A stretch of DNA of 64,000 nt, taken from contig OZ024743.1 in assembly GCA_964016885.1 (NCBI GenBank), positions 239,196,001 to 239,260,000 on the forward strand, read 5' to 3'. This DNA comes from Eledone cirrhosa (lineage: Eukaryota). The notes beneath the pieces are model-generated. The model ran no database searches and was not told where the DNA came from. It saw only the letters and a program-made list of their open reading frames with translations. The position numbers were made by a program, and so were the translations under genes. The stretch's first letter is position 1, and each line of letters starts with the position of its first letter. Of this stretch, positions 7,210 through 37,682 are shown one piece after another.

Positions 7210-9332
7210 CCACGTATAGTCAACATAGTTCGTAACAACAAGTTCCATAGGAATAGAGCACGGCGGACAGAATATCTCAAAAGTCTCGGATCCACCATCA
7301 AAAGCATGGAAACATGCCAGGATTTACTTGTGCCCTCGGACAAAACTGGTAATGTATACATGCTTGACCGTTTTACATACAATGACTGCCTCGGGAAAGA
7401 GATTAGGGAAAACTATAGGACCACAGGACAGACAAATTTAGATAGTATTAACGCCACGACAAAAAATATACCGACGGGGCTAGTACTAGAGGATAGGACC
7501 GAGGTATATGTACCTCGAAAACCACGGATATCTATTAAAGACCATAAATTAGACTTTAAAACTAAACTACCGGTTAAGTTAATAGCACCCTCCAAATCCG
7601 ACCTAGGCAGGACCAGCAAGAATATTATAGATAGGATCATACCGGTACTTAGAAACAAAACTAGGCTTAGCCTATGGACCTCCACTAAGGAGGTAATCGA
7701 GTGGTTCTCGTTAATAGCTGACAAACACCAAGTAAATTTTATTCAGTTAGACATAGATAGCTACTACGCGTCAGTATCTCCGATACTAGTCAATAAGGTC
7801 CTCATAAGCGCCAGGGCCAGATCTATCCTCACTAGGGACGAGAGCAACCTCATAGTAGCAGCCAGAAAGACGCTAATTAGTTTCGAAGACAAGTTATGGG
7901 AGAAGAGGGACAGACCCGACAGTTTCGATATCACCATGGGGTCAAGTGACTTGGCGCAGGTGACCGACCTTGTGGGGATATATCTCATCCATAGGCTGAC
8001 GGAGGAGTTCCCGTGGATCGGAGGTGGAATATACAGAGAGGACGCAATTTTCACCTTCCGTTCCCTTAACACCAGTCAGATGGAGTGTATGAGGAAGCGC
8101 ATATCGCATTTTTTTTAAACAACACGGCTTATCCGTGACAATATATCCTAGCACTAAGACGGTCAATTTCCTGGACGTTACCCTGGAAATGAATACGGGC
8201 ATCCACAGACCATACCATAAGCCCAACGAAAACCTGCAATATGTGAACAGGCAATCGAATCACCCTAAGTCAGTCATAGAAGCCATAGTTAAAGGGGTAT
8301 CCAAACGCGTATCCACCCTGTCGTCGAACGCAGAAGTGTTCAAACAGCACGCCAAATATTATAATGAGGCACTGCGTAGGACCGGTTACAAAGACACCAT
8401 AATACATACCCCAGATAGAGTAGAGCCTAGTGATAAGGCGTGCAGAAATGCCAATAGTGAGGGCGCCTCCTTAGGTAGAAGAATTGACCCAGTAGCAGTA
8501 TCCAGGAACACAAATAACAACACAACTAGCATTAATGACACAGGACCGACCCGAGGTACGAATAAGGCACCCATAGGAGCCAGACCACCCAGTACGCGGA
8601 GGCATGTGCCTCGCACGCACACTTCATACTCCGCGCCAACTGGGACCACGGACAGGACTTCCACAAATACGAACGGGGCACACGCCTCAGAGCACGACCA
8701 CCCTGGTTATAGTGCTACAGCACGGACAACAGCATCACATAGACCTAAGGGGAATAGACGTATAGATGACCACATAGAACGACGTAACTTTATAACTGTA
8801 GAGCATAACCCCGACGCACTTAGCGAGCAAATAGACAGAGACAACACACGGGACGAAATTGTGGTTGGGCCGGGCACTGGACGGACATCGAGTCCTGGAC
8901 GCACGAACAAGAATCCACGCACAAGAAGGAACAGATCTATGGCCTTTACCTGGTTTAATGCGCCTTACTCCAAATATGTACGCACCAACGTGCCAGGACT
9001 TTTCTTCCGAGCGCTAGATGAGTGCTTTCCGCGGACAAACAAATACCACAAAATCTTCAACCGCCACACGGTGAAATTTTCCTTCCCCACAGCGCCTAAT
9101 GTGGCCGACTACATGGCTAGAACTAACGCGGTGAAGATGGCGTACACTGGCCGTCAAGCGCGGCGACAAAGTGAACGTCTTTCGGAGCACGGAGAACCAA
9201 CCAAGGACCTGCCCTCAAATGACAACTCAGCCCACCAGGCGACAAGAGCGCCCGCGGAGGGCGATATGGTTCAACACCGAGAGGGAAACAGTGGCATGGG
9301 GGAGACAACAGTGTCGGTGGTACAACACCCTG
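7210..9332 (+). pseudogene. Penelope-like reverse transcriptase, 5'-truncated, frameshifted, no GIY-YIG domain
   Basis: Motifs SDKTGNVY, KDHK, PSKSDLG, FIQLDIDSYY, FDITMGS, GIYRED (YRDD altered), VNFLDVTL, SNHP and WFNAPY are colinear with the intact ORF at 20564-23026. Frameshift in the T-run near 8110. Confidence 0.9.
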
Positions 9333-9887
9333 AGATATATATAAGGTTGGGCGTATGTATGTGTGCGCGCGTATGTATGTATATATGTGTATCTTTGAGT
9401 AGGCCATGCTTATCCCAACCGGATACATGGGGCGAATTAAGCAGCCGTCATAAGGCTTGTGGCGATATGTATCTACAAGTGGGTGTGATGGGGTCGTGGA
9501 GGTGAGGGAGAAAGTGTGTGTGTGTATATATATACATATATGTATGTATGTTGGGGTGTGTGTGTCTGCGCATGTAGGCGTACGTGTGTGTATGCATAAA
9601 TCTCTCGGTGCCTGCATGAGTGTGTGTATGTGTCTGTATATTAGTATGTGTGGGTGCTTACTCTGAAGCGTGAAGAGACGTGTGAGATGCTGAACCCAGC
9701 ATGACTCCATCGAAATGTGTCGGACGGAAAATGGCTGATGACCCGTGTGGCAGTAGATACTGACTAGAACTTGTGATGACGTGGAGTGAAAACAGCCAAT
9801 GGCATGACAAGAGTGGAAGTAGGGTTTTTTTAGGGTGTTTTTGATGATAACACCCCAGTGATAACATTTTCTCCAAACGAAATACTC

Positions 9888-9976
9888 GTGTCTGAAAGAA
9901 CCTGCAGAAGTAGAATCAGCCAGATCCATACAAGGACCATGTCTCGAGCTAACTGCCGCAGAAACAATTGTAACAC
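9888..9976 (+). ncRNA. Hammerhead-like motif with long stem II (inverted copy at about 6331-6419)
   Basis: GTGT-CTGAAAGA-...TGCAG...CTGCCGCA-GAAAC-AATT-GTA^-ACAC; palindromic stem III ACAATTGT. The core has extra bases. Confidence 0.55.
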
Positions 9977-10109
9977 ACAATAAATTAAGTCCAGATGCAT
10001 CACTGATTTTTCGTTTTCTTTATACTATCTACACTCTTACTCTGATGAATATCGTTTGCTAATTTTGGCATTACGCCTATGGAAGCACCATAGCTACCAT
10101 TATACACAA

Positions 10110-10176
<67 letters not shown>

Positions 10177-13551: not shown

Positions 13552-14700
13552 AGATTAGTAGAGCGTAAGCACGTGGAGAAATAAATATAGGAGAACAAGC
13601 CGTTAAAACATGTTTATTTAAAATAGCACCTACGTACGTTTCGCCCGAATGGACTTCTGAAGGTCATAAATAACTAAAAAGTGTTCCTTACATGACTCGG
13701 AATGTGTTTTTAGAGATAAGTTCACGTCAGAGTTCATTCTTCGTAAAAAAAGCATGTATTGATTTTGCAGTAGGTCAAGGGAGATAACTCTGGTCGGTGT
13801 TAGGGCAGTCTTTTCCGGACAAATTTGTATCCGTTACCAGTATGTGGCAACTACCTTACCATTGTCGATACGCACAGGGTCAGGTATGCAACGTTTGTTT
13901 CGAGACGTTTCTTTGCAGCGCCTGCCCACCTGGGTCGATTCATGCCGGGTCTGGGATGCATGGTTAGTTTCCGGATGTTTTTTGCAGTGCCTGCCCGGTG
14001 GGGTGTTAAAGCTTGGTGCAGGGAGACCCCGTTTACGGTTTCACTCCTCGTTCTTATTCCATCTGGAGTAGGATATTTTTCAGCGGTGTGTGCAGCTTAT
14101 CGTCGTTTCAGCTCTGCTGTTGATGAGCTCGTGGGGTGCCGTTATGATGTGGTAGAGCTCCATGAGGCAAAGCTCGGACTTCCTCTTGAAGATGTACGGT
14201 GCAGCCCTGCCCACAATTTCCCAGTGCGTGGAGAAGCTGATGTTTGAGTCTTTTAATGCTGTGATGTAGTACGCGAGCGAAGTGGAGTGTCTTAGTTTCT
14301 TGTTTGCGAAAGAGTGGAGATGTGTTCAAAATCTAATTTTGAACGGGCCAGAGGTGGTCCCTATACAATGTTTAACGCTATTATGCTAGTTACGGTGCAC
14401 CTATATATAACCCTATCAGCGGCAGTTGCAATTTCGGTCGCGGTCCCTTCTAGTTCCCACGGTAAGGCTATTATTATTGCTATCTACGTTGCTACCTACG
14501 CTCCCACACCTGTCATTAGCACCATTATAACCCACTGCGTGCGGGGTGGTACCATTATTATTCAGAACGCAGCAGCGCCTTCCGTTGCTGCCAGGTGACC
14601 CGTGCGGGTCACTTGCATACTCCCCAGTCATGTCGCGTATGTGTTGATTGCGTCTGTAGTGGCTGTTGCCAGCACTATTGGATGCTGCTAGGGAGTTATT
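13552..14700 (-). mobile_element. PLE 3' fragment (degraded GIY-YIG C-terminus + pLTR), same family as the 63170-63640 foldback
   Basis: The minus strand encodes WEIVGRAAPY...LCLMELYHI...INSRAE near 14110-14225. 13552-13780 aligns with 63175-63400 and includes GGGC-GAAAC-GTAC-GTA. Confidence 0.75.
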
Positions 14701-14726: not shown

Positions 14727-15603
14727 AATGTTCGCTCTACATGGATGAATAAAATAAATGTAATCTGAGTTTTTCAAATATTAATGATAACAATCATCTC
14801 GTTTGCAATTATGCAAATAAGCCTCAACTTTATAGCCATGTCAGTAGAATGAACACTTCATTCTTCCTCTTGTGTTGGCATGTGAACAGAACTGCAGACA
14901 CCAATGTTTCTGGGTATCAACATTCATCAGTACAGCTCACTGTTCACCTGCCAAACTGTCAGAGCTTGTGAAAATATATGCTATTTTCAAAAATATGCAG
15001 TGACTGATCGGCCTGATTTGCATATTAGCAGACTGGCTGATCAGTCAGATCTGCATATTATCAGATCCACTGATCAGCCAGATTTGCATATCAGCAGACT
15101 GGCCAGTCAGTTTCCTGTATACGAGCGATAAATGGCCGGCGTTGTCAAATTCAAATAAAAAAGAAAATTTTAAACTCTCCATGGCTGAATACAATAAATG
15201 TAATCTAAGTTTTTCGAATATTCATAATAACATTTGAATTTGGCATCGCTCGTATACAGGAAACTGACTGGCCAGTCTACTGATATGCGAATCTGGCTGA
15301 TCAGTGGATCTGCCAATATGCAGATCTGAATGATCAGCTAGTCTGCAAATCAGACCGATCTGTCACTGTGTACTTTTCAAAATACCATATATTTTCACTA
15401 GCTCTGACAGTTTGGTAGGTGAACAGAGAGTTGTACTGATGAAGGGTGATACCCAGAAACATTAGTGCCTGCAGTTCTGTTCACATGCCAACACAAGAGC
15501 AAGAATGAAGGGCTCATTCTACTGACATGGCTATAAAATTGAGGCTTGTTTGCATAATGCAAACGAATCGAATGTTATTAATATTCGAAAAACTCGGATT
15601 ACA
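14727..15603. mobile_element. HHR-bearing foldback insertion
   Basis: About 14757-15129 is the reverse complement of about 15245-15603. The spacer contains a direct copy of the element's own left end. Flanked by (TA)n. Confidence 0.85.
15431..15474 (+). ncRNA. Hammerhead ribozyme (inverted copy 14892-14935)
   Basis: TTGTA-CTGATGA-AGGGTGATACCCA-GAAAC-ATTAGT-GCC-TGCAG. The opposite arm retains the GTC cleavage triplet. Confidence 0.7.
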
Positions 15604-15819
15604 TATATATATATATATAATGTTATATTTGGGGAGGGCCAGACTATTATAACATTGCCAGAAATAATGATAAAACACACTCACTGTTTGGTCCAGATTG
15701 GTTTACGCTTCTGTATCTTTCATATCTCTATAGTTAATTTATCTGGCAGTCAATGTTTATCATATTTGTTTCAACACACGATTTAATATCAAAATCCTTG
15801 CAAAGCAAATATATATATG

Positions 15820-16671: not shown

Positions 16672-16860
16672 TAAATAATTGTTTCTACTTTAGGCACAAG
16701 GCCAGCAAATTACCCAGTGCATTACTGGTACTTTATTTCATCGACCCCGTGAGGATGAAAGGCAAATTAACCTCGGCGGGATTTGAACTCAGATCGTAAA
16801 GGGACGTAACTATGCTGGAAGGCATGGCGTCCGACCCTCTACCGATACTGCCAATCCACA
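16672..16860 (-). mobile_element. tRNA-derived SINE
   Basis: Minus strand has A-box-like TGGCAGTATCGG, B-box GAGTTCAAATCC and central GCCTTTCATCCTCACGGGGTCGATGAAATAAAGTACCAG. Related copies are at about 47400-47560, 48433-48485 and 53131-53322. Confidence 0.8.
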
Positions 16861-16928: not shown

Positions 16929-16974
<46 letters not shown>

Positions 16975-17159
16975 GATAAATCTACCAAGAGTTTACGGTA
17001 GTGTCCAATCCGTATGAAGAACTCAATGTATTCCGGATATCATGGAAAGAAGAGATGTAATGAAAATCCAATTTCGGTGAAAGATAAACGGTATACAGAG
17101 TCAAGATAAAATATTAAACAAATAATGAACAAACAATTCCTTATATTAAACAAAAAAAG

Positions 17160-17314
17160 TTCACTATTTAACGATCGTTTCTAGGGTATATATGTGCTAT
17201 AATTGGTATGCATATTTAACAGATCTATGTACAAAATTATACAAAATTATACAAATTATCAAGATTAAATATACATACCTAACTCATATATACGCCGTCT
17301 TCAGAAATAATGAA
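17160..17314 (-). ncRNA. Type-I hammerhead ribozyme with about 115-nt stem II (copy 1)
   Basis: Reverse complement of 32248-32402. Confidence 0.8.
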
Positions 17315-17399
17315 GTATATTTATTGATAATAACAACAATTCAAAATATCAGTTCAAAATTGACCAATGAAAACACAAAGGGTTAAAAAGCAGTTTGGT

Positions 17400-18088
17400 G
17401 TGTGTATATACATGTAAAACCCTACACACATTTTACAATAATGTGTGTATAATATGTATGTGCATACTAAAAAGATGGATGCAAATAAAAAATTTCAAGG
17501 TTAATATCTCTGTAAGCTTAATGCGCTGATAAGATACGCAATGATACTTATGTAGTCAAGCATATAAATATATTTTTTTCATACTCACACATATCAGTAT
17601 AATCACACATACATGTGCGTATATATATAAATATACACATAACCACGAACACACAAACACACACACACCCCCCACTCACATTTATATATGTGGATATAAA
17701 ATCATAAGCAAATAGAAATTAAGTCACTCACATAAACACACTGGTACACACATTTCAAGATCAAGATACAGAAATTAGGTGGGAGGGGGGGGGGAGGGGT
17801 CAGTATTAGGTTGTCAGACCAGACAGCCTAATATAAATGTATCTATAAATTATGAAAAATAAAAAAATAAAAACAATAAAATATATTACATATAATATAA
17901 TGTACATACGCATACAGATATACATACACATACATACATGTACGCGCACATAGAGATATCTACACATACATACATACACACATACCTATACTGTCATACA
18001 CACACATACATTTACACGAACATACACATACACATATAAAAAGATAAAAATACAGACACACACACGCGCAACACATACACACATACAC

Positions 18089-18129
<41 letters not shown>

Positions 18130-18240
18130 TATACACACACACACATAGACTCATATATATATACATACACATACATATACTTATACATAAACATATATAT
18201 CCCACACTCATACCACCATGAAAACACATACAAACATCCA

Positions 18241-18299
<59 letters not shown>

Positions 18300-18391
18300 A
18301 TACACACACGTACACATATATGCATATATACATACATATATACACACATACACATATATATATATACACACACACATAAAATACAGACATG

Positions 18392-18422
<31 letters not shown>

Positions 18423-18518
18423 TTCATTACCCTTATATATACACATAGTATATATACATACACAACCTCACTTATACACATATACACATAAGTTATATTA
18501 CAATAATAATAAAGAATA

Positions 18519-18549
<31 letters not shown>

Positions 18550-20309
18550 TATACACACATATACACATATACATACATACACATACATATACATACATAC
18601 ATACACATACATACATACACCTAAATATAAACATATATAAATACACACATACGAATAAAGACATATATTCACACATAGACACCTATATACACATATATAT
18701 ATATATATAATTATATATATATATATATATCTATATACACACACATACACATACATACACATATATATATATATACACATATATACACACGCACACACAT
18801 ACAGACACACATACACACTCACATATATATATATATATATATATATATGTGTATGTGAGTGTGCGCAAATACATACATATATATACACACACACATACAA
18901 ACACACACAAACACATACATATGCATACATGCACACACACTCACATATATCACATAGATACGAAGATAAACATATAAATAGAGAGACATACAAATATATA
19001 CAGAACCCATATACACATACATGCAAACACGCATATACATATATACATATATACACACATATATATTCCTATATACAAGCATACACATACACACACATAT
19101 ATACATATACCTACACATATATATACCACACATTCACATACACGTACATATATAATACATATATATACATACATATACATACATATGTATGTACAATCAT
19201 ATATACACACTCAATCTTACATTCATATTTACATGCTCATATATGTATTTTTATATCTAGAAAAAAATACCAAAAAAACTATATAGACACCCATCTACCC
19301 ATATATTCATACATATACACTTACAAAAACAGATGATAATAGTATGGGGGAAAGGGGGGGGTTTGGAGAAGGGGATCAAAGTAAATATATGTTTCAAGAA
19401 ACCTATAATATTTTCCATATCTTAATTCAATGTATGTTCTTACATATTTTCAATGCTAGGAGATACGAAATCTATGCATCACAAAATAAAAAAGTATACC
19501 ATTAATCATATGTCAACTAAACCAAAGATAGTCAACATATTGATTTCCAAGGTGTAAATTAGTTAGGTTTATAATATTTGAAGCAGAATTATGAAGTCAA
19601 ACAGTAGTAGATTATTAATTACATTATAACTAAATTAAAGTTAATAATAGGGAAAAGAAACCCAAATAAAAATAAAATAAAGTATTACATCGGTAGTAGC
19701 ATATAAATTATATGTTAACTAAGTTAAAAATTATATATTTATTTCAATAGTATATGTTAATTAGTATATGTTAATTAGGTATACAATACATAAAGCAGAT
19801 ATTGTATTTCATCAATAGCATAATATAATTATATGCAAATAAAAATCAAAATTAATACGCATACACATACATATACATACACATACACATACATATACAT
19901 ATATATACACATATATATATATATATATATACATATATATACACACATACATACATATATAGTCACATAAATATACATACAGATACACATACAATACACA
20001 CATATACATATACATATAGATATACATATCTTTTTCAAAAAAATTTGCACAGAATATATTAACTAGGTATATATCCAAAAACACCTCCCATTCTATGATT
20101 ACATGAAATTCTGCAATTCGTCTGTACAAGGATACTAATTTTAAGCAAATTAAAATTAAAATTAAAGTTTTAGGTTGATTAAAGCTAAAACCAAATAATA
20201 AATATATTTCCAAAATGTATATTAATTAGGTCAATAATACTAAAAATTCTTTCTCCGTCATAGGATACATGATATTATTTTGTTATATTTTATCTGTAAA
20301 AGAATTATA

Positions 20310-20345
<36 letters not shown>

Positions 20346-20563
20346 TAATAAAAGGTTAAACTAAATTAAAAAATTATAATAAAAGGTTAAAATAAGTTAA
20401 AATTAATCTATAAATTAAATTACTGAATATATATTAGTAATATTTAAAGGTTTTTCAAAATTAATGATTACATAATATTTTCTCATCTGTAATAAAATAT
20501 TAATTAAATTAAATTTATAGGTTAACTAACATTTAAATTAAATTAAATTCTAGAATAATGTTA
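17400..20563 (-). repeat. Microsatellite-rich 3' UTR of the PLE ((TA)n/(TG)n/(TATG)n mosaics and a poly-U tract)
   Basis: The same mosaic is repeated at about 23590-26770 and inverted at about 28988-32160. Confidence 0.9.
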
Positions 20564-23026
20564 TTAATTAGGTTTATAATATTTAAATGTTTTTTTTAGT
20601 TTATGATTACACGATATAATTAATTCCTGTCTTTTATTTAATAAGATATCCCTAGACTTCATTATTTCAAATAGTTCTTGGGAACATAATCTACATTCCT
20701 TTCTATTATTTTGATAAGGGGTGGCTCTTTTGAGCACACTCCAGGTCAAATCATATTTTATATTTTTATTTTTATAACTATTGATTTTTTCTGCTAGAGA
20801 TGTTGTATTAGCCAGTGCGGCATTTTTAAAGCTATGTTTGTGGGTATTATACCTTGTCTTAAAATTGTTAGAGGTAGCTCCTATATATGTGCAAATAGAA
20901 TCTTTAGTTTTAACATTACATTTATAGACTATGTTGTTAACAAGACAATTCCCTTTTAATGGGCAGTTTGTTTTGTTTCTACAGTTACATCCTTTCGTTA
21001 ATTCTGTATTTGAGGAGATATTATTGTTAATTTGATGTACTGGTGGTATACTTATAGTTTTCTTACATTTATATGCATTATATGCACTTATATTTTGTTT
21101 TATGTTATTTGTTGTAGAATATGAGAATTTAACTGTAGACCTATTTAAGATTTGATGGTATTTGTGGTTTGGCGGGAAGTTTTTCTCAAGGATATAAAAA
21201 AATTTTTTAGCAATATTATCCTTAACTTGTAAATTAAAAGGAGCATTATACCAAGTAACTCGTCTATTACGGTTTCTATGTTGTTTATTATTTTTATTAT
21301 TTTTATATGTTGTATCATGATTTTTACTAGGAGGAATAATGTTAATGATCTCACCACAACTATTTTTAGTTATATTTGTAGATTTAGGTGTTTTATCTTT
21401 TTTATTAGGAGTTTTATTATTAATATTTATTATAGTCTTATGATGAGTAGTTTTTTGAGGGTTACTATACTTTATATTAGAAGATTTAGTATTTTGGGGT
21501 ATACTGTGGGTGGCATTTAGGTGTGTACCTTTCATTTGGTGTTTGTTGGTAATATTATGCTGTATGTTTTCAGTATTTTTAGTAGAAGTTATATACTCTA
21601 ATCTATTTTTGTGGCCACTTCTATCTAGAGCTTCATTATAAAAGGTCGCATTTTTATCAAATACATCTTGGTTAGAAGAAAGGTTAGAAATTCTAAGTGA
21701 TATATTATATGCAAGGTTTTTAAGGATAGATTTAGGGTGATTAGATTGTGAGTGTATGTAATGTAAGTTTTGGTTAGGTTTATGGTAAGGTTGGTATATA
21801 CCCGTAGCTAAATCTAAAGTTATATCTAGGAAATTTACTACTTTACTTGTTTTTTCAAAAGTAATATTAAGATTATAATAGTCCTTAAGGAAAGTTCTAA
21901 TATGCTTTTTGTTTTTTTCGATTTCTGAAAGGCTAAGGTTGTTAGAAAGAAGAAGACAGTCATCACGATATAAACCACCTTTGAGGTGGGGAAAAGAGGC
22001 ATTTATGTTGAAAAGGAGAAAGAGGCCCACAAGATCAGTAATTTGGGCAGAATCGCTTGAACCCATAGTAATATCAAAAAGATTACTATAAGTGTTTCTG
22101 GTCCAGTATTCATTCTGAAATTCAATAAGTGTTTGTCTAGCATGTGTAATAATGTTAATGTCATCCGAAGTTAAATTAGATCTATTTTTAGCAAATATTA
22201 ATGCTTTGTTCAGGAGTATGGGTGATATAGAAGAATAATAGTTATCTATATCAAACTGTAGGAAAGAAGCAGAAGATTTACACCTAATATTTTTAAACCA
22301 ATTAATTACCTGGGAGGTGTTTTCCCAGAGTGGTAAAATAACGTATTTTCTTATTTGTGGGATGACTCTATCTAAAATTTTTTTGCTAATTATTCCAATA
22401 TCTGATTTGGAGGGACATATAAGTCTAATAGAAGGATTAGAGTTAAAGTTAGATTTGTGATCTTTCAGGTTGAAGTGTGGACTTCTCAATGCCAAAGGTT
22501 CAGTTCTATCTTCAATATTTAGTTTTTTTACTATGTTGTGTGTTTTGTTGTTGATGTTGGTGAGTGACGCATTATTAGATTTTTTATAACTTTTTCTGAG
22601 TTCTTTATATATGAACTCATTATAATGTTCAATATCCATATGATACAAGTTACCAGTTTTGTCCGAGTGGACATGGATTTTTTTAGACTTTTTTAGGTCC
22701 AATAGGGTAGAATCAAGGTCCTTTTGAAAGACGGATTTATACTTTTTAAATTTGAGGTGTTTAATTAAATTAAAAAGGTCTTTCTCGAAGTCTTCAAGTA
22801 AAAAGTTGTGTGGTGGATTCTTGTAAGTGTTGAAATCATACATATATTTCCGATCTGCTTGTTTAGACTTTCTATCAAAGTGGTAGGCTCTCCATCTAAC
22901 CCTTCTGATAAAATTATTAGTTTTCTGAATCATAAGGAGTAAGAAGTCGTCCTTAGAAGGTATTGGTATGTTTTTTAAGGAGGTTCCTAAATATTGTTTT
23001 TCCATTGTGATATGGATGATGGACAA
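20564..23026 (-). CDS. Intact Penelope-like RT + C-terminal GIY-YIG endonuclease polyprotein (first ATG at 23005, about 813 aa)
   Basis: Uninterrupted ORF with SLKNIPIP, SDKTGNLY, FLQFDIDNYY, ITMGS, GLYRDD, FLDITL, SNHP, WYNAPF, linker CNCRNKTNCPLKGNC, NIVYKC...YIGAT (GIY-YIG) and CRLC...E...N...CNH. Confidence 0.95.
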   Translation of the reverse strand: MSIIHITMEKQYLGTSLKNIPIPSKDDFLLLMIQKTNNFIRRVRWRAYHFDRKSKQADRKYMYDFNTYKNPPHNFLLEDFEKDLFNLIKHLKFKKYKSVFQKDLDSTLLDLKKSKKIHVHSDKTGNLYHMDIEHYNEFIYKELRKSYKKSNNASLTNINNKTHNIVKKLNIEDRTEPLALRSPHFNLKDHKSNFNSNPSIRLICPSKSDIGIISKKILDRVIPQIRKYVILPLWENTSQVINWFKNIRCKSSASFLQFDIDNYYSSISPILLNKALIFAKNRSNLTSDDINIITHARQTLIEFQNEYWTRNTYSNLFDITMGSSDSAQITDLVGLFLLFNINASFPHLKGGLYRDDCLLLSNNLSLSEIEKNKKHIRTFLKDYYNLNITFEKTSKVVNFLDITLDLATGIYQPYHKPNQNLHYIHSQSNHPKSILKNLAYNISLRISNLSSNQDVFDKNATFYNEALDRSGHKNRLEYITSTKNTENIQHNITNKHQMKGTHLNATHSIPQNTKSSNIKYSNPQKTTHHKTIININNKTPNKKDKTPKSTNITKNSCGEIINIIPPSKNHDTTYKNNKNNKQHRNRNRRVTWYNAPFNLQVKDNIAKKFFYILEKNFPPNHKYHQILNRSTVKFSYSTTNNIKQNISAYNAYKCKKTISIPPVHQINNNISSNTELTKGCNCRNKTNCPLKGNCLVNNIVYKCNVKTKDSICTYIGATSNNFKTRYNTHKHSFKNAALANTTSLAEKINSYKNKNIKYDLTWSVLKRATPYQNNRKECRLCSQELFEIMKSRDILLNKRQELIISCNHKLKKTFKYYKPN

Positions 23027-23348
23027 TTGAAAGAGCTCAACTAAATGTATATGGGTTTACAAAATCATACATATATATATGTATATACATAAATATAAAA
23101 TTAATACACACATACAGTACAAAAATACGAATATTTCCGTGAAAATAGGAGCAAAATTATGTAGATAAATCTACCAAGAGTTTACGGTAGTGTCCAATCC
23201 GTATGAAGAACTCAATGTATTCCGGATATCATGGAAAGAAGAGATGTAATGAAAATCCAATTTCGGTGAAAGATAAACGGTATACAGAGTCAAGATAAAA
23301 TATTAAACAAATAATGAACAAACAATTCCTTATATTAAACAAAAAAAG

Positions 23349-23503
23349 TTCACTATTTAACGATCGTTTCTAGGGTATATATGTGCTATAATTGGTATGC
23401 ATATTTAACAGATCTATGTACAAAATTATACAAAATTATACAAATTATCAAGATTAAATATACATACCTAACTCATATATACGCCGTCTTCAGAAATAAT
23501 GAA
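23349..23503 (-). ncRNA. Type-I hammerhead ribozyme with about 115-nt stem II (copy 2, about 350 nt upstream of the intact ORF's ATG)
   Basis: Identical to copy 1, offset by 6189 bp. Confidence 0.8.
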
Positions 23504-24276
23504 GTATATTTATTGATAATAACAACAATTCAAAATATCAGTTCAAAATTGACCAATGAAAACACAAAGGGTTAAAAAGCAGTTTGGTGTGTGTATATAC
23601 ATGTAAAACCCTACACACATTTTACAATAATGTGTGTATAATATGTATGTGCATACTAAAAAGATGGATGCAAATAAAAAATTTCAAGGTTAATATCTCT
23701 GTAAGCTTAATGCGCTGATAAGATACGCAATGATACTTATGTAGTCAAGCATATAAATATATTTTTTTCATACTCACACATATCAGTATAATCACACATA
23801 CATGTGCGTATATATATAAATATACACATAACCACGAACACACAAACACACACACACCCCCCACTCACATTTATATATGTGGATATAAAATCATAAGCAA
23901 ATAGAAATTAAGTCACTCACATAAACACACTGGTACACACATTTCAAGATCAAGATACAGAAATTAGGTGGGAGGGGGGGGGAGGGGTCAGTATTAGGTT
24001 GTCAGACCAGACAGCCTAATATAAATGTATCTATAAATTATGAAAAATAAAAAAATAAAAACAATAAAATATATTACATATAATATAATGTACATACGCA
24101 TACAGATATACATACACATACATACATGTACGCGCACATAGAGATATCTACACATACATACATACACACATACCTATACTGTCATACACACACATACATT
24201 TACACGAACATACACATACACATATAAAAAGATAAAAATACAGACACACACACGCGCAACACATACACACATACAC

Positions 24277-24317
<41 letters not shown>

Positions 24318-24430
24318 TATACACACACACACACATAGACTCATATATATATACATACACATACATATACTTATACATAAACATATATATCCCACACTCA
24401 TACCACCATGAAAACACATACAAACATCCA

Positions 24431-24491
<61 letters not shown>

Positions 24492-24583
24492 ATACACACA
24501 CGTACACATATATGCATATATACATACATATATACACACATACACATATATATATATACACACACACATAAAATACAGACATG

Positions 24584-24614
<31 letters not shown>

Positions 24615-24706
24615 TTCATTACCCTTATATATACACATAGTATATATACATACACAACCTCACTTATACACATATACACATAAGTTATATTACAATAATA
24701 ATAAAG

Positions 24707-24743
<37 letters not shown>

Positions 24744-26503
24744 TATACACACATATACACATATACATACATACACATACATATACATACATACATACAC
24801 ATACATACATACACCTAAATATAAACATATATAAATACACACATACGAATAAAGACATATATTCACACATAGACACCTATATACACATATATATATATAT
24901 ATAATTATATATATATATATATATCTATATACACACACATACACATACATACACATATATATATATATACACATATATACACACGCACACACATACAGAC
25001 ACACATACACACTCACATATATATATATATATATATATATATGTGTATGTGAGTGTGCGCAAATACATACATATATATACACACACACATACAAACACAC
25101 ACAAACACATACATATGCATACATGCACACACACTCACATATATCACATAGATACGAAGATAAACATATAAATAGAGAGACATACAAATATATACAGAAC
25201 CCATATACACATACATGCAAACACGCATATACATATATACATATATACACACATATATATTCCTATATACAAGCATACACATACACACACATATATACAT
25301 ATACCTACACATATATATACCACACATTCACATACACGTACATATATAATACATATATATACATACATATACATACATATGTATGTACAATCATATATAC
25401 ACACTCAATCTTACATTCATATTTACATGCTCATATATGTATTTTTATATCTAGAAAAAAATACCAAAAAAACTATATAGACACCCATCTACCCATATAT
25501 TCATACATATACACTTACAAAAACAGATGATAATAGTATGGGGGAAAGGGGGGGGTTTGGAGAAGGGGATCAAAGTAAATATATGTTTCAAGAAACCTAT
25601 AATATTTTCCATATCTTAATTCAATGTATGTTCTTACATATTTTCAATGCTAGGAGATACGAAATCTATGCATCACAAAATAAAAAAGTATACCATTAAT
25701 CATATGTCAACTAAACCAAAGATAGTCAACATATTGATTTCCAAGGTGTAAATTAGTTAGGTTTATAATATTTGAAGCAGAATTATGAAGTCAAACAGTA
25801 GTAGATTATTAATTACATTATAACTAAATTAAAGTTAATAATAGGGAAAAGAAACCCAAATAAAAATAAAATAAAGTATTACATCGGTAGTAGCATATAA
25901 ATTATATGTTAACTAAGTTAAAAATTATATATTTATTTCAATAGTATATGTTAATTAGTATATGTTAATTAGGTATACAATACATAAAGCAGATATTGTA
26001 TTTCATCAATAGCATAATATAATTATATGCAAATAAAAATCAAAATTAATACGCATACACATACATATACATACACATACACATACATATACATATATAT
26101 ACACATATATATATATATATATATACATATATATACACACATACATACATATATAGTCACATAAATATACATACAGATACACATACAATACACACATATA
26201 CATATACATATAGATATACATATCTTTTTCAAAAAAATTTGCACAGAATATATTAACTAGGTATATATCCAAAAACACCTCCCATTCTATGATTACATGA
26301 AATTCTGCAATTCGTCTGTACAAGGATACTAATTTTAAGCAAATTAAAATTAAAATTAAAGTTTTAGGTTGATTAAAGCTAAAACCAAATAATAAATATA
26401 TTTCCAAAATGTATATTAATTAGGTCAATAATACTAAAAATTCTTTCTCCGTCATAGGATACATGATATTATTTTGTTATATTTTATCTGTAAAAGAATT
26501 ATA

Positions 26504-26552
<49 letters not shown>

Positions 26553-26770
26553 TAATAAAAGGTTAAACTAAATTAAAAAATTATAATAAAAGGTTAAAAT
26601 AAGTTAAAATTAATCTATAAATTAAATTACTGAATATATATTAGTAATATTTAAAGGTTTTTCAAAATTAATGATTACATAATATTTTCTCATCTGTAAT
26701 AAAATATTAATTAAATTAAATTTATAGGTTAACTAACATTTAAATTAAATTAAATTCTAGAATAATGTTA

Positions 26771-28925
26771 TTAATTAGGTTTATAATATTTAAATGTTTT
26801 TTTTAGTTTATGATTACACGATATAATTAATTCCTGTCTTTTATTTAATAAGATATCCCTAGACTTCATTATTTCAAATAGTTCTTGGGAACATAATCTA
26901 CATTCCTTTCTATTATTTTGATAAGGGGTGGCTCTTTTGAGCACACTCCAGGTCAAATCATATTTTATATTTTTATTTTTATAACTATTGATTTTTTCTG
27001 CTAGAGATGTTGTATTAGCCAGTGCGGCATTTTTAAAGCTATGTTTGTGGGTATTATACCTTGTCTTAAAATTGTTAGAGGTAGCTCCTATATATGTGCA
27101 AATAGAATCTTTAGTTTTAACATTACATTTATAGACTATGTTGTTAACAAGACAATTCCCTTTTAATGGGCAGTTTGTTTTGTTTCTACAGTTACATCCT
27201 TTCGTTAATTCTGTATTTGAGGAGATATTATTGTTAATTTGATGTACTGGTGGTATACTTATAGTTTTCTTACATTTATATGCATTATATGCACTTATAT
27301 TTTGTTTTATGTTATTTGTTGTAGAATATGAGAATTTAACTGTAGACCTATTTAAGATTTGATGGTATTTGTGGTTTGGCGGGAAGTTTTTCTCAAGGAT
27401 ATAAAAAAATTTTTTAGCAATATTATCCTTAACTTGTAAATTAAAAGGAGCATTATACCAAGTAACTCGTCTATTACGGTTTCTATGTTGTTTATTATTT
27501 TTATTATTTTTATATGTTGTATCATGATTTTTACTAGGAGGAATAATGTTAATGATCTCACCACAACTATTTTTAGTTATATTTGTAGATTTAGGTGTTT
27601 TATCTTTTTTATTAGGAGTTTTATTATTAATATTTATTATAGTCTTATGATGAGTAGTTTTTTGAGGGTTACTATACTTTATATTAGAAGATTTAGTATT
27701 TTGGGGTATACTGTGGGTGGCATTTAGGTGTGTACCTTTCATTTGGTGTTTGTTGGTAATATTATGCTGTATGTTTTCAGTATTTTTAGTAGAAGTTATA
27801 TACTCTAATCTATTTTTGTGGCCACTTCTATCTAGAGCTTCATTATAAAAGGTCGCATTTTTATCAAATACATCTTGGTTAGAAGAAAGGTTAGAAATTC
27901 TAAGTGATATATTATATGCAAGGTTTTTAAGGATAGATTTAGGGTGATTAGATTGTGAGTGTATGTAATGTAAGTTTTGGTTAGGTTTATGGTAAGGTTG
28001 GTATATACCCGTAGCTAAATCTAAAGTTATATCTAGGAAATTTACTACTTTACTTGTTTTTTCAAAAGTAATATTAAGATTATAATAGTCCTTAAGGAAA
28101 GTTCTAATATGCTTTTTGTTTTTTTCGATTTCTGAAAGGCTAAGGTTGTTAGAAAGAAGAAGACAGTCATCACGATATAAACCACCTTTGAGGTGGGGAA
28201 AAGAGGCATTTATGTTGAAAAGGAGAAAGAGGCCCACAAGATCAGTAATTTGGGCAGAATCGCTTGAACCCATAGTAATATCAAAAAGATTACTATAAGT
28301 GTTTCTGGTCCAGTATTCATTCTGAAATTCAATAAGTGTTTGTCTAGCATGTGTAATAATGTTAATGTCATCCGAAGTTAAATTAGATCTATTTTTAGCA
28401 AATATTAATGCTTTGTTCAGGAGTATGGGTGATATAGAAGAATAATAGTTATCTATATCAAACTGTAGGAAAGAAGCAGAAGATTTACACCTAATATTTT
28501 TAAACCAATTAATTACCTGGGAGGTGTTTTCCCAGAGTGGTAAAATAACGTATTTTCTTATTTGTGGGATGACTCTATCTAAAATTTTTTTGCTAATTAT
28601 TCCAATATCTGATTTGGAGGGACATATAAGTCTAATAGAAGGATTAGAGTTAAAGTTAGATTTGTGATCTTTCAGGTTGAAGTGTGGACTTCTCAATGCC
28701 AAAGGTTCAGTTCTATCTTCAATATTTAGTTTTTTTACTATGTTGTGTGTTTTGTTGTTGATGTTGGTGAGTGACGCATTATTAGATTTTTTATAACTTT
28801 TTCTGAGTTCTTTATATATGAACTCATTATAATGTTCAATATCCATATGATACAAGTTACCAGTTTTGTCCGAGTGGACATGGATTTTTTTAGACTTTTT
28901 TAGGTCCAATAGGGTAGAATCAAGG
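26771..28925 (-). pseudogene. 5'-truncated duplicate of the PLE ORF
   Basis: Protein is identical to 20564-23026 from LDSTLLDLKKSKK onward. About 100 N-terminal residues are lost at the inversion junction. Confidence 0.92.
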
Positions 28926-29205
28926 AATTAATTATATCGTGTAATCATAAACTAAAAAAAACATTTAAATATTATAAACCTAATTAATAACATTATTCTA
29001 GAATTTAATTTAATTTAAATGTTAGTTAACCTATAAATTTAATTTAATTAATATTTTATTACAGATGAGAAAATATTATGTAATCATTAATTTTGAAAAA
29101 CCTTTAAATATTACTAATATATATTCAGTAATTTAATTTATAGATTAATTTTAACTTATTTTAACCTTTTATTATAATTTTTTAATTTAGTTTAACCTTT
29201 TATTA

Positions 29206-29254
<49 letters not shown>

Positions 29255-30834
29255 TATAATTCTTTTACAGATAAAATATAACAAAATAATATCATGTATC
29301 CTATGACGGAGAAAGAATTTTTAGTATTATTGACCTAATTAATATACATTTTGGAAATATATTTATTATTTGGTTTTAGCTTTAATCAACCTAAAACTTT
29401 AATTTTAATTTTAATTTGCTTAAAATTAGTATCCTTGTACAGACGAATTGCAGAATTTCATGTAATCATAGAATGGGAGGTGTTTTTGGATATATACCTA
29501 GTTAATATATTCTGTGCAAATTTTTTTGAAAAAGATATGTATATCTATATGTATATGTATATGTGTGTATTGTATGTGTATCTGTATGTATATTTATGTG
29601 ACTATATATGTATGTATGTGTGTATATATATGTATATATATATATATATATATGTGTATATATATGTATATGTATGTGTATGTGTATGTATATGTATGTG
29701 TATGCGTATTAATTTTGATTTTTATTTGCATATAATTATATTATGCTATTGATGAAATACAATATCTGCTTTATGTATTGTATACCTAATTAACATATAC
29801 TAATTAACATATACTATTGAAATAAATATATAATTTTTAACTTAGTTAACATATAATTTATATGCTACTACCGATGTAATACTTTATTTTATTTTTATTT
29901 GGGTTTCTTTTCCCTATTATTAACTTTAATTTAGTTATAATGTAATTAATAATCTACTACTGTTTGACTTCATAATTCTGCTTCAAATATTATAAACCTA
30001 ACTAATTTACACCTTGGAAATCAATATGTTGACTATCTTTGGTTTAGTTGACATATGATTAATGGTATACTTTTTTATTTTGTGATGCATAGATTTCGTA
30101 TCTCCTAGCATTGAAAATATGTAAGAACATACATTGAATTAAGATATGGAAAATATTATAGGTTTCTTGAAACATATATTTACTTTGATCCCCTTCTCCA
30201 AACCCCCCCCCTTTCCCCCATACTATTATCATCTGTTTTTGTAAGTGTATATGTATGAATATATGGGTAGATGGGTGTCTATATAGTTTTTTTGGTATTT
30301 TTTTCTAGATATAAAAATACATATATGAGCATGTAAATATGAATGTAAGATTGAGTGTGTATATATGATTGTACATACATATGTATGTATATGTATGTAT
30401 ATATATGTATTATATATGTACGTGTATGTGAATGTGTGGTATATATATGTGTAGGTATATGTATATATGTGTGTGTATGTGTATGCTTGTATATAGGAAT
30501 ATATATGTGTGTATATATGTATATATGTATATGCGTGTTTGCATGTATGTGTATATGGGTTCTGTATATATTTGTATGTCTCTCTATTTATATGTTTATC
30601 TTCGTATCTATGTGATATATGTGAGTGTGTGTGCATGTATGCATATGTATGTGTTTGTGTGTGTTTGTATGTGTGTGTGTATATATATGTATGTATTTGC
30701 GCACACTCACATACACATATATATATATATATATATATATATGTGAGTGTGTATGTGTGTCTGTATGTGTGTGCGTGTGTATATATGTGTATATATATAT
30801 ATATGTGTATGTATGTGTATGTGTGTGTATATAG

Positions 30835-30868
<34 letters not shown>

Positions 30869-31015
30869 ATATGTGTATATAGGTGTCTATGTGTGAATAT
30901 ATGTCTTTATTCGTATGTGTGTATTTATATATGTTTATATTTAGGTGTATGTATGTATGTGTATGTATGTATGTATATGTATGTGTATGTATGTATATGT
31001 GTATATGTGTGTATA

Positions 31016-31046
<31 letters not shown>

Positions 31047-31142
31047 TATTCTTTATTATTATTGTAATATAACTTATGTGTATATGTGTATAAGTGAGGT
31101 TGTGTATGTATATATACTATGTGTATATATAAGGGTAATGAA

Positions 31143-31173
<31 letters not shown>

Positions 31174-31265
31174 CATGTCTGTATTTTATGTGTGTGTGTA
31201 TATATATATATGTGTATGTGTGTATATATGTATGTATATATGCATATATGTGTACGTGTGTGTAT

Positions 31266-31322
<57 letters not shown>

Positions 31323-31433
31323 TGGATGTTTGTATGTGTTTTCATGGTGGTATGAGTGTGGGATATATATGTTTATGTATAAGTATATGTATGTGTATGT
31401 ATATATATATGAGTCTATGTGTGTGTGTGTATA

Positions 31434-31474
<41 letters not shown>

Positions 31475-32247
31475 GTGTATGTGTGTATGTGTTGCGCGTG
31501 TGTGTGTCTGTATTTTTATCTTTTTATATGTGTATGTGTATGTTCGTGTAAATGTATGTGTGTGTATGACAGTATAGGTATGTGTGTATGTATGTATGTG
31601 TAGATATCTCTATGTGCGCGTACATGTATGTATGTGTATGTATATCTGTATGCGTATGTACATTATATTATATGTAATATATTTTATTGTTTTTATTTTT
31701 TTATTTTTCATAATTTATAGATACATTTATATTAGGCTGTCTGGTCTGACAACCTAATACTGACCCCTCCCCCCCCCTCCCACCTAATTTCTGTATCTTG
31801 ATCTTGAAATGTGTGTACCAGTGTGTTTATGTGAGTGACTTAATTTCTATTTGCTTATGATTTTATATCCACATATATAAATGTGAGTGGGGGGTGTGTG
31901 TGTGTTTGTGTGTTCGTGGTTATGTGTATATTTATATATATACGCACATGTATGTGTGATTATACTGATATGTGTGAGTATGAAAAAAATATATTTATAT
32001 GCTTGACTACATAAGTATCATTGCGTATCTTATCAGCGCATTAAGCTTACAGAGATATTAACCTTGAAATTTTTTATTTGCATCCATCTTTTTAGTATGC
32101 ACATACATATTATACACACATTATTGTAAAATGTGTGTAGGGTTTTACATGTATATACACACACCAAACTGCTTTTTAACCCTTTGTGTTTTCATTGGTC
32201 AATTTTGAACTGATATTTTGAATTGTTGTTATTATCAATAAATATAC

Positions 32248-32402
32248 TTCATTATTTCTGAAGACGGCGTATATATGAGTTAGGTATGTATATTTAATCT
32301 TGATAATTTGTATAATTTTGTATAATTTTGTACATAGATCTGTTAAATATGCATACCAATTATAGCACATATATACCCTAGAAACGATCGTTAAATAGTG
32401 AA
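32248..32402 (+). ncRNA. Type-I hammerhead ribozyme with about 115-nt stem II (copy 3)
   Basis: TTCATTATTT-CTGAAGA-CGGCGTATATATG...CATATATACCCTA-GAAAC-GATC-GTT^-AAATAGTGAA: 10-bp stem I, canonical core, palindromic AACGATCGTT. Confidence 0.8.
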
Positions 32403-32447
32403 CTTTTTTTGTTTAATATAAGGAATTGTTTGTTCATTATTTGTTTA

Positions 32448-32524
<77 letters not shown>

Positions 32525-33346: not shown

Positions 33347-33401
33347 TTATCGTCCACCTGGTTCCTTACCACACTTCCTTCGTTTTATATATATATATAT
33401 A

Positions 33402-33712
33402 TAGTTATGTAATAAACAACATAAGGCAATTATTCCATTTACCAGTGGTTTCTTAAAAGCAAAAAATTTTGCTTTCAATCATCAGAATGAAAAAATCCTG
33501 GTCTGTTTATTGAATTTGGATTCAATAAACAAATTCAATAAACAGACCAGGAGTTTTTCATTCTGATGATTGAAAGCAACATTTTTTGCTTTTAAGTAAC
33601 CACTGGTAAATGGAATAATTGCCTTATGTTGTTTATTACATAACTATTAAGCTCTGTTACCTACATAGAGCACTCTTTTTTCCTGGACTTTTCCGACGGA
33701 ATTACTTCATTT
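33402..33712. mobile_element. Short HHR foldback insertion
   Basis: 33402-33517 is inverted at about 33531-33646, followed by a tail. The minus-strand HHR at 33436-33489 reads CATT-CTGATGA-TTGAAAGCA..TGCTTTTAA-GAAAC-CACTG-GTA^-AATG. A solo tail copy is at about 48738-48810. Confidence 0.85.
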
Positions 33713-35065: not shown

Positions 35066-37682
35066 GTCGAGGAAGTGGTGGAGATGTCGTAGCCTGAGCG
35101 CGTGTCTGCCCATCATCAGCCACGGCATGCCCAGCCCTCCACGTAGCGGGTGTTGACAACAGATGGACCGCCTGACCATCGGAGCGCGTCCCTTCCACAA
35201 AAAGCGAAAGAGCAAACGCTCCAGCGCAGTCAGGCGTGGCTTAGGACAGGGTACGACGGTCAGGCGGTAGCAGATGACAGAGGCGATGTACGCGTTAGCC
35301 ACCTCCGCTCGACCTTTCAGGGATAGCTTCCTCTCCGCCCATTTCTGGGTGAGAGAAGCCACCCTGCTCGCCACCTCGTCCCAGTTTTTGTCCGTCTGGA
35401 GGTCCGGACCGAACCAGACCCCTAGCAATTTAACCAGTCCGTCCGTCCAGCGTCCGACGATGCTGTTGGACGGCATGGACCTGCCTCTCTAGGTGCCGAG
35501 CTGCAGGCCCACTGACTTTTCCTGGTTGGTCATTGCACCTGTCACCGCTTCGCATTCTCTTAGTGTAGTGCCGATCGCCTCCATGTGTTTGGCGTTCGAC
35601 ACCACTACGGTGACATCGTCCGCATATGCTGACAGACACGGATCTTCCGCATCCTAGTTCGCGCGGGACCCCCTCAACGTCTCCAGTTTGTCCAGTAATG
35701 GCTCGAGAGTCAATACGTACAAGAGGGACGAGAGGGGACATCCTTGGCGGACCGAGCGCATGATGTTGAACGGTTCCGAAAGGTGACCGTTCACTCTCAC
35801 CACAGAGCAGATGTCTCTGTGCATGGCAGTGATCCAGCCTCTGAAGACGGGCCCAAAACAAGCCGCCCTCAGGACTGCCGCTCGGTAACGATGGTCGACC
35901 CTATCGAAAGCTTTCGACTGATCTAAATTAACCAAGGACCCACCCGTGCCAGGTTCCCTAGCCACCCTCTCTACGATGTATCGCATGAGGTGGAGGTGGT
36001 CCTGGAAGGATCTGTCGGGAATGGCGCATGTCTACGCCTCTGCCACCAGACCCCAACGACAAGCGCCAACCTCTTTGCTAGCACCTTGGCCAAAATCTTG
36101 AGCTCTGTGTTTAACAGAGATATGGGCCTAAAATTATCTATGTTATCCCACTTTCTCAGATCCTTTCTCATCAACGCCACAGCTCCTCGGCTCACAGAGC
36201 TGGGAATTCTCCCGTTCTGTTGCCAGTTGCAGTAGACGTCCGCCAAGAGGCCTCCGAACAAGTCTGGCATCTGTACGTAAAGTTCATAGGGCACACCAAC
36301 CAAACAAGGCGATTTACCCCTTGTGCAGCCAGTCATTGCATCCCGTACTTCAACGGCTGTTATCGGCTTTTCGTAACACTCCGCCTCAGTAGCCGAGAGC
36401 CGCGGCAGTCCGTTGAGGTAGACACTAAAGTCCATCCGTCGATACGGCCCGCCGCTTCCCCCGAACAGCTGAGCGAAGTGTCGCTGAAAAGCTTCACACA
36501 TTTGCCCAGGATCGAGTAGCATGCGCCTGTCGTGGTCCACCAAAGACCGGATCGTGACTTTGTTGCCACGACGCGCCTACGCCACTCGGGCCCATTGAAC
36601 GGCTTTCGTTCCATCCTGTCTGAGAGCACGCACCCTATATCTGACAACGCAGCCTTCGTGCTTTGCATTGAAGAATTGGTCAAGGGCCAATTTCACCGCA
36701 AGTACGTCAGTCGCGATGCCTTTGCTAAGCGCCTGGTCTAATTTTCTAACTAATTCTCCCTCTGCTCTATTTTTCTCTATTGCTAAAGCCTTACTAAACC
36801 TAATGGACTCTATTCTAATTGCTATTTTCAGAGCAAACCACCACTTGTTGTTGACGATGGCACCCGTCAACGCCCGCTTAACTAGTTCGCTAATCCGGTC
36901 TCTGTAGGCCTTGCGCGCTGGTAAGGACGCGTGTAGCTTCCAGTAGTCGGGTCCTAGTCTATGAAGCCTATATAAGTCAAGCACACAGATCACGAATTTG
37001 TGGTCCGTGTAGCTGACTATCTTGAATTATGGATAGCCTATGCTAGACCTATCTATTTCCCTACAAAATACTCTATCTAGATATGATCTGGATGACCCTA
37101 TGCGATTTGTCCAAATCCACATTGGCACATTCTGGAAATCCAATCGGTACCTGTCAGACAGTTCAAAACGCCTGAGCAGGTTGGTGAGGCTCTTGCACCC
37201 TCCTCCCCTATCCGCTAATCCCACACAGTCCCAGCGTGAATCTAAGATCCCGTTCCAGTCGCCCACTAACACTAAAGAGCTGGACGTTCCAAGAAAGGTC
37301 TCCAAACGCCGGAAGAAATCAGGCCCCCTGCTCCTGTCGGGGCATAGACGGCCACTAGCCTGAAAGCTTGCCCGTCTCTGCTGGTCACGTCTAGCACCAT
37401 CAACTTACCTTCTGGGTCCAGGAAGATGGTCCGTATGGCGATATCCAGACCTCTCCAAAAAAGCACCGCAACTCCCCCCCCCTCCGATCCAGGACGGCTG
37501 GGAGATGCGTACACATCGTAGCCGCCGAAGATCGGTGCGAAGGCCCGTGCTTCGGAGATTCTGGTCTCGCCGATGGCCACTACATCTATGTTTAGCGACC
37601 TGAGGTCGTTGAGCAGGTGGCCCTGCTTCCATGACGACCCCAAGCCATGCGCATTTAAGCTGCCTATTCTGAGTGAGGGCAT
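35066..37682 (-). pseudogene. LINE ORF2 (AP endonuclease + RT), multiply frameshifted
   Basis: SLNAHGL, AIGETR, LVGDWN, YLDRVF, TDHKF, YWKL, FRPISLLNTELKILAK, LDQSKAFDRVDH, VRQGCPLS, AYADDV, LLGVWF, LSLKGRA, GGLGMP. Confidence 0.92.

Follow-up and report, generated by a model that had tools for sequence, protein, structure and literature searches.

Two motif-marked ends of a tandem, inverted and tailed Penelope-like element insertion in Eledone cirrhosa, and the start sites that they suggest

A stretch of 64,000 nt from Eledone cirrhosa (NCBI GenBank assembly GCA_964016885.1, contig OZ024743.1, positions 239,196,001 to 239,260,000 of the forward strand; hereafter "the window") contains a 15.5-kb insertion of a Penelope-like element (PLE), whose form raises the question of what RNA was copied into it and where on that RNA the copying began. 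A preliminary description, made from the sequence alone, reported an intact element repeated head-to-tail and attributed it to a ligated circular RNA of about 6.2 kb, a partly uncleaved multimer or a precise template jump, with emphasis on the circle. The mechanism by which PLEs produce insertions that are tandem, inverted and tailed is described in the published work as undefined (PMC8557442). Our analysis points to a pair of motifs in the 5' untranslated region (UTR), conserved among the relatives of this element, whose two copies coincide with the two ends of the insertion; we tentatively interpret these ends as two internal start sites of reverse transcription. The insertion comprises three units, A, B and C, and the following features, including an open reading frame (ORF) for a reverse transcriptase (RT):

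16972..32456, units A and B on the minus strand and inverted unit C on the plus strand: the whole insertion, 15.5 kb, with (TA)n on both sides
16972..23160, minus strand: unit A, full length (6189 bp), with its outer 3' end (16972) at putative start site 2 (cut+198)
23161..28925, minus strand: unit B, 0.93 unit, 5'-truncated 287 nt into the ORF
28923..32456, plus strand: unit C, inverted, 0.57 unit, with the last ~60 nt of the ORF, the 3' UTR and the hammerhead
20564..23005, minus strand: intact 813-aa ORF, RT with C-terminal GIY-YIG (RWR 37, DKT 115, YRDD 346, CxCx5C 673, CxxC 771, CxH 799)
17171..20563, minus strand: 3' UTR up to the cut, 3.4 kb, AT-rich, with long simple-repeat tracts
17160..17314, minus strand: type I minimal hammerhead of A, with 10-bp stem I, 116-nt stem II region, palindromic ACGAUCGU stem III and GUU cut after 17170
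23349..23503, minus strand: hammerhead of B, with its cut (after 23359) lying 354 nt upstream of the ATG of A
32248..32402, plus strand: hammerhead of C, cut after 32392
23207..23291, minus strand: motif 1 (GACTCT ... ATTGAGTTCT, long loop), beginning 3 nt after site 1, with a second copy in the tail of A (17018-17102)
23032..23152, minus strand: motif 2 (GCTCC ... GTTGAGCTCT, long loop), beginning 8 nt after site 2, the sole copy in the insertion, in the 5' UTR of A
16972..17105, minus strand: tail of 134 nt separating the two putative start sites, carried by the A arm but lacking in the C arm

The tandem is real: A and B together make 1.93 units with a period of 6189 bp, and over the 5747 aligned bases (the A-equivalent length of B) they show no substitutions and five indels, every one of them within a homopolymer or dinucleotide run, while the junction between them (23160/23161) is scarless. 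The preliminary description was right to call the element intact as far as the 813-aa ORF is concerned, which is complete in A only (B lacks its first 287 nt), but its account was incomplete, for it missed the inverted third copy, C. This copy differs from A and B by one substitution plus run-length differences, and is joined head-to-head to B through a 3-nt AGG microhomology (28923-28925). Private run-length alleles occur in A, B and C, at seven sites in total, in a star-like pattern that does not separate the template models. Since the three units are near-identical while reads of the family are mostly 90-99% alike, they come from one source, and the 15.5-kb insertion is one young event. It has two outward-facing 3' ends in a single (TA)n target. 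The outer end of A, placed about 200 nt beyond the ribozyme cut in the preliminary description, lies 198 nt past the type I hammerhead cut and shares a TAT microhomology with the target; the outer end of C is site 1, 64 nt past its own hammerhead cut, in (TA)n. The inverted third copy implies two separate priming events. B ends 577 nt before the next site 1. Outside the insertion there is a SINE-like repeat in two 94%-identical copies (16674-16859 and 53132-53317), the first of them ~110 nt to its left. A tentative SINE resemblance is in keeping with a cephalopod host.

An end beyond the cut is nothing special to this locus. A metagenome search with a protein alignment gave 77 related loci, where a single-protein query gave none. 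The downstream copy ends 46-128 nt past the cut in all nine informative relatives, two of which are doubtful (k-mer-sized repeats); only four 5' boundaries, all internal, were found. Ends past the cut are clade-wide, and the 198-nt overhang is no evidence for a circle: what it shows is a template unbroken at the hammerhead, be it linear or circular. The same end was found in reads from another individual. We used four of 18 listed sequencing runs (X1, X4, X5 and X16), all from individuals other than the source; all four differ from the window at near-fixed sites (e.g. 21025 and 23260), and hence they cannot check the assembly of the window. Run X16 contains 622 reads in which the element stops at 23158 and gives way to (TA)n, which corresponds to the outer end of A; this site-2 end also occurs in run X4, and an X5 contig starts there. 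Among the read ends listed, neither the +64 end nor a stop at the cut was seen, which is no proof, given 466 further loose ends. Pile-ups in X16 at 23324-23327, 23393-23399 and 23547 coincide with probable restriction sites, and we gave them no biological meaning. In run X1, the depth drops ~7-fold from 158,470 at 23504 to 21,372 at 23574 and is about 2,000 at 23153; it is unchanged at the cut (23359), so that the fall is located just upstream of the hammerhead, a weak indication, as summed contig depth does not equal copy number. The segment with the hammerhead and tail (23161-23505) is ~100-fold deeper than the 5' end of the ORF in runs X1 and X4, and an X5 contig folds back at 23500, which suggests that a large family of short palindromic derivatives exists.

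The two ends are marked by a duplicated motif. The sequence GTYGAGCRCT, preceded by GCTCY (overall form GCTCC...GTYGAGCACT), is found upstream of the ATG in 53 of the 59 relatives for which sufficient sequence was available, against a mean of 0.4 and a maximum of 2 in shuffles, and it is present in two copies, mostly 55-74 nt apart, in 38 of 50. In the window element motif 1 reads ACUC/GAGU, and both motifs fold as predicted stems; C stops 3 nt before motif 1 and A stops 8 nt before motif 2. Nineteen insertion ends were found in the relatives, of which 16 were usable (two exact 55-mers and one end without a motif were dropped). Twelve of these lie -5 to +10 nt from a motif start, compared with 2.5 for random ends (0 of 10000 draws), six of them before each motif copy, in loci at most 72% identical; the scored ends stop before motif 2, with one exception. 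The Hydra consensus sequences in the supplement of PMC8557442 carry the same motif pair and end at the same two sites, and our searches of the open-access literature found no description of the pair. In three relatives (L007, L011 and L018) a (TA)n tract immediately precedes a motif copy within the 5' region, and this tract could provide direct homology to the target. The loop of motif 2 in the window element also contains a candidate 74-nt intron (23115-23042, minus strand, GUAUGU...UUUAG), for which no further support was found; introns in the 5' UTR of PLEs are known.

The rule of one site per arm extends to other elements in the window. Each of the 12 other inverted-arm elements has one arm flush with a TA run, while the other arm is 32-138 nt longer in nine and has no TA run within 200 nt in three; none is symmetric. 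All ten head-to-head insertions with TA runs on both sides, the 15.5-kb insertion included, have one short and one long arm. With that insertion again counted, CTC occurs just beyond the position of the short-arm end in 11 of 13 long arms, against 1.6 expected (0 of 5000 draws), and the 3' half of the motif in eight of 13, the true match for element 33401 being at +17. A stem III can be recognised in 11 of the small palindromes; in six of these the arms extend 27-282 nt past the cut, and none stops at the cut. Short head-to-head palindromes in (TA)n are located at 33401-33711, 46408-47184, 50554-50746, 50904-51383, 51405-51629, 61352-61565, 562-1852 and 14754-15608; they belong to several different families, each has one short and one long arm, and several contain hammerheads. 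Further related copies at 63193-63640 and 13554-13778 carry a hammerhead-like GAAACGUACGUA end with a non-canonical core beside a short stem.

The hammerhead itself has the core CUGAAGA followed by GAAAC-GAUC-GUU, with a palindromic stem III of 2 bp. In a descriptor search its 10-bp stem I was reached by none of 20 shuffles of the window, and the fold has z = -4.2. An Rfam search gave no match at the gathering score, and at low stringency weak AT-repeat matches only. After the cut, the monomer ends are predicted to pair through the 10-bp stem I. By a strict descriptor, 33 of the 77 related loci carry a hammerhead.

According to its motifs and layout, the element fits the Hydra clade of EN+ PLEs. 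The 813-aa protein contains YRDD together with RT motifs A and B, and the linker and endonuclease motifs CNCRNKTNC (673), CRLC (771) and CNH (799), with no CCHH motif. No CxxC was found between GIY and YIG, either in the query, which has two unconserved Cys residues there, nine apart, or in any of 117 homologues. In atlas searches, residues 1-470 matched RT-like clusters and residues 665-813 matched GIY-YIG clusters (at 0.95-0.98); the GIY-YIG family of Pfam matches weakly in four of 34 aligned members, and sequence searches of Pfam and PDB gave nothing for the query protein itself. As in EN+ PLEs, a single ORF combines an RT with a C-terminal GIY-YIG domain, and the insertion consists of a partial tandem (pLTR), an inverted 5'-truncated copy and a one-sided tail. 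Like the Hydra clade described by Craig et al. 2021 (PMC8557442), the element has RWK-like and DKT motifs, CxCx5C, CxxC and CxH without CCHH, a type I hammerhead, which in that clade frequently has a U at the cut site and here has an unusually long stem II, a (TA)n target, and the 5' UTR motif pair. It departs from the short size (<3 kb) of that clade, its 6189 bp (6.2 kb) comparing with 1080-3045 bp (1.1-3.0 kb), due to the 3.4-kb 3' UTR; since the clade is only "generally short", this trait is not a defining one. Naiad or Chlamys identity was rejected, as the endonuclease is C-terminal rather than N-terminal, the motif is DKT rather than DKA and a canonical hammerhead is present, and so was identity with a non-LTR retrozyme, as a 6189-bp unit with an 813-aa ORF is not a non-coding repeat of 150-450 bp. 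We conclude that, by these features, the element is an unusually long, newly found member of a known clade, with a layout ordinary for its superfamily: partial tandems, which the preliminary description had called typical of active PLEs, are usual in published PLEs along with a truncated copy inverted next to them and a tail on one side (PMC8557442), and are seen in this form in rotifer elements as well (PMC3846280).

Compared with its relatives, the window element has a stem II region of 116 nt instead of about 10-25 nt, motif loops of 70-105 nt instead of about 4-20 nt, and a tail of 134 nt instead of about 60 nt. Stem II (17160-17314) and both motif loops (23032-23291) are expanded 5-10-fold with the pairing kept, and this lineage seems to have a tendency to lengthen its loops. 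Elsewhere in the window, positions 6281-10111 (plus strand) hold an older Hydra-like element with an RT 45% identical over 270 aa, a broken ORF, (TA)n on both sides, and inverted termini that end about +54 and +139 from a hammerhead-like cut. An inverted repeat of 70% identity at 1888-2296 resembles, by eye, the end of a PLE endonuclease coding region, and neither the motif nor a hammerhead was found in it. Broken ORFs resembling LINE-type reverse transcriptases are present at 35971-36522 and 40055-42633.

This insertion likely arose by target-primed reverse transcription from both nicked strands of (TA)n. The particular scheme that we favour, tentatively and at somewhat less than an even chance, is twin priming at the two motif-marked internal start sites on RNA whose hammerhead had probably escaped cleavage; a homology jump between the redundant ends of this RNA would have brought the longer copy to 1.93 units. 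The GIY-YIG domain would nick both strands of (TA)n, the protein, possibly as a dimer, would bind motifs 1 and 2 on the RNA, and cDNA synthesis would begin just 5' of each motif, aided by the TA primer, which would be paired over about 3 nt. From site 1 the cDNA would have reached 3.5 kb (C), and from site 2 it would have run for 11.95 kb (A and B), whereupon the two cDNA ends would have annealed through AGG and been filled in; two priming sites and AGG joining thus account for the tail and the inversion. As for the tandem, reverse transcription from the motif 2 site would run off at a putative transcription start just upstream of the hammerhead, and the run-off cDNA would transfer to the identical 3' pLTR copy on the same or a sister RNA; repeated transfer would create a seamless tandem without ribozyme cleavage. 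Because it requires no ribozyme activity, the homology jump fits both the data on the element PAc and the hammerhead-free Naiads considered below, and the fall in depth just upstream of the hammerhead in run X1 fits run-off and jump too, if weakly. With internal priming the template would extend past 16972, so that RNA ends at this position, which the preliminary description had named as a sign of a linear template, are not to be expected.

The position of motif 2 places a further demand on any linear template. Being found only in the 5' UTR, this motif lies near the 5' end of the RNA, and the +198 end precedes it, which strengthens the earlier claim that the product cannot come from a single reading of one linear RNA cut at both ends by the ribozyme. 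If the motif must be present 3' of the start, as RNA is for PAc, and ends stop before motif 2, then linear read-through would lose one unit per generation, and a unit-restoring step in the life cycle, either a jump or a circle, is likely needed, in agreement with the core of the preliminary inference. By linear read-through nothing but the incomplete B could issue from the window locus, which would itself require a parent of about three units; priming on read-through (UA)n at the inherited end is an alternative, but even this could not give 1.93 units from a shorter parent.

Several observations weigh against the scheme of twin priming and jump. Four of the 16 usable ends lie off the motif (L005, L050, L051 and L069), and the L051 copy passes the only motif detected. 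The motif was first spotted by eye in nine loci that were later tested, and the scoring windows were set afterwards, so that the P values are optimistic. The stem positions of the motif are near-invariant and offer little covariation, and it is from conservation and position that we infer its action on the RNA. Jump, circle and multimer would all yield identical seamless DNA, the transcription start upstream of the hammerhead is itself a proposal, and the abundant hammerhead-and-tail module may be a separate non-autonomous family rather than a set of run-off products. To our knowledge, PLE reverse transcriptases have no known RNase H, so the transfer would need host RNase H or branch migration. 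Finally, after cleavage the 10-bp stem I would keep the two monomer ends paired, which suits a circle.

The circle (or nicked circle) supposes that hammerheads cut a longer-than-unit transcript to a 6189-nt monomer, whose ends are held by stem I or ligated by RtcB, and that reverse transcription from site 2 rolls round by strand displacement for 1.93 units. It would place motif 2 downstream of the full ORF without any parent array, and it agrees with the near-identity of A, B and C and with the predicted pairing of the cut ends through stem I. Animal retrozymes with type I hammerheads do form circles, likely via RtcB (PMC7229834), hammerheads are called universal in the Hydra clade (PMC8557442), and a ligated circle for longer-than-unit reverse transcription was proposed for PLEs by Cervera & de la Pena 2014 (PMC4209133), as a hypothesis there too. 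Yet the hammerhead in question has a 2-bp stem III and a palindromic loop of the dimer type, and such minimal hammerheads are weak, dimer-dependent and poor cutters in vitro (PMC4209133); hammerhead mutants left PAc insertion unaffected, with no RNA-seq ends at the PAc cut in the published data consulted (PMC11167929); Naiads form the same tandems without canonical hammerheads (PMC8557442); the read depth drops just upstream of the hammerhead with no smooth decay, a weak argument; and no coding PLE circle was found in our searches of the open-access literature. The set of options in the preliminary description was thus the correct one, whereas its emphasis on the circle, which remains a published, unproven hypothesis that the window locus does not single out, is not favoured, and we consider the circle an unlikely if live option. 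A wider claim, which we hold to be quite unlikely, is that Hydra-clade PLEs replicate on unit-length coding RNA (here 6.2 kb) closed at the hammerhead by ligation or by stem I, and that the RT-endonuclease, as a dimer, grips both copies of the GCUC/GAGCACU motif, primes the two target strands at points 60-130 nt apart on that one RNA and rolls round it by strand displacement. If true, this closed-RNA rolling mechanism alone would explain the tail, the inverted copy and the tandem.

An uncut linear multimer would involve a near-identical parent array of about three units (or a two-unit parent primed at its 3' end on read-through (UA)n) and a transcript of at least 12 kb through uncut hammerheads, copied once per site. 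An mRNA of several copies has been drawn for PAc (PMC11167929), and low hammerhead activity (PMC4209133) speaks for it; two of the 77 related loci (L012 and L063) assemble as two full units (99.9% and 99.6% identity), possibly as an effect of assembly, and the stop of B 577 nt before the next site 1 is what a single long RNA primed at both sites would give, although such a stop has a likelihood of about 1 in 10 by chance. We rate the multimer, like the circle, as an unlikely if live option. Ends that stop before motif 2 mean that each linear round loses a unit, so another step must add units, and the units of the parent array would have to be identical although most of the family diverges by 1-10%. 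Very improbable, in our judgement, is an origin of the second unit at the DNA level or as an artefact, whether a new copy entered the pLTR of the element itself by homology, a longer array underwent unequal crossing-over, or the near-identical repeat was misassembled. PAc does cleave its own ORF-pLTR junction in vitro (PMC11167929), and none of the four runs, given their differences at 21025 and 23260, comes from the source individual; on the other hand, B alone (0.93 unit) offers no direct repeat for recombination, the seven private run-length sites suggest that the copies were separately resolved, and the layout agrees with the published PLE pattern (PMC8557442).

The closest experimental parallel to the favoured scheme of two internal starts is PAc (Poseidon_Ac; Frangieh et al. 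2024, PMC11167929), whose purified protein, a predicted dimer with uncut RNA as its main substrate, starts cDNA at two adjacent internal sites downstream of the hammerhead, which define the tail, and extends both strands on an AT-rich target with RNA required 3' of the start. PAc belongs to another clade, and its starts lie inside the ORF in an AC-rich stem-loop, in contrast to the 5' UTR position before a clade-wide motif found here; in the parts of that study consulted no strand difference in the start site is reported, whereas the insertions in the window use one site per arm. Non-LTR retrozymes (PMC7229834; bioRxiv 10.64898/2026.07.22.740005) share the head-to-tail repeats and a type I hammerhead per unit, and are linked to the pLTRs of PLEs, but they are non-coding, with units of 150-450 bp and circles shown experimentally, while the window unit is 6.2 kb long, coding and known from DNA alone.

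The head-to-head arrangement also has a counterpart outside the PLEs. In L1 twin priming, primers derive from both target strands and a head-to-head inversion forms with short microhomology, as in the scheme favoured for the window insertion. The second L1 primer anneals at variable internal sites, whereas the starts proposed here would be fixed by motifs about 60-130 nt apart.

The useful result is a duplicated motif conserved across the clade, one copy of which corresponds to one end of an insertion and the second copy to the other end. The motif pair explains the one-sided tail and points to the exact bases for mutation, and together with the rule of one site per arm it makes the formation of PLE tandems and tails directly testable. 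As the window locus holds an intact, very young ORF and both putative start sites, jump, circle and multimer could be separated in one in vitro system.

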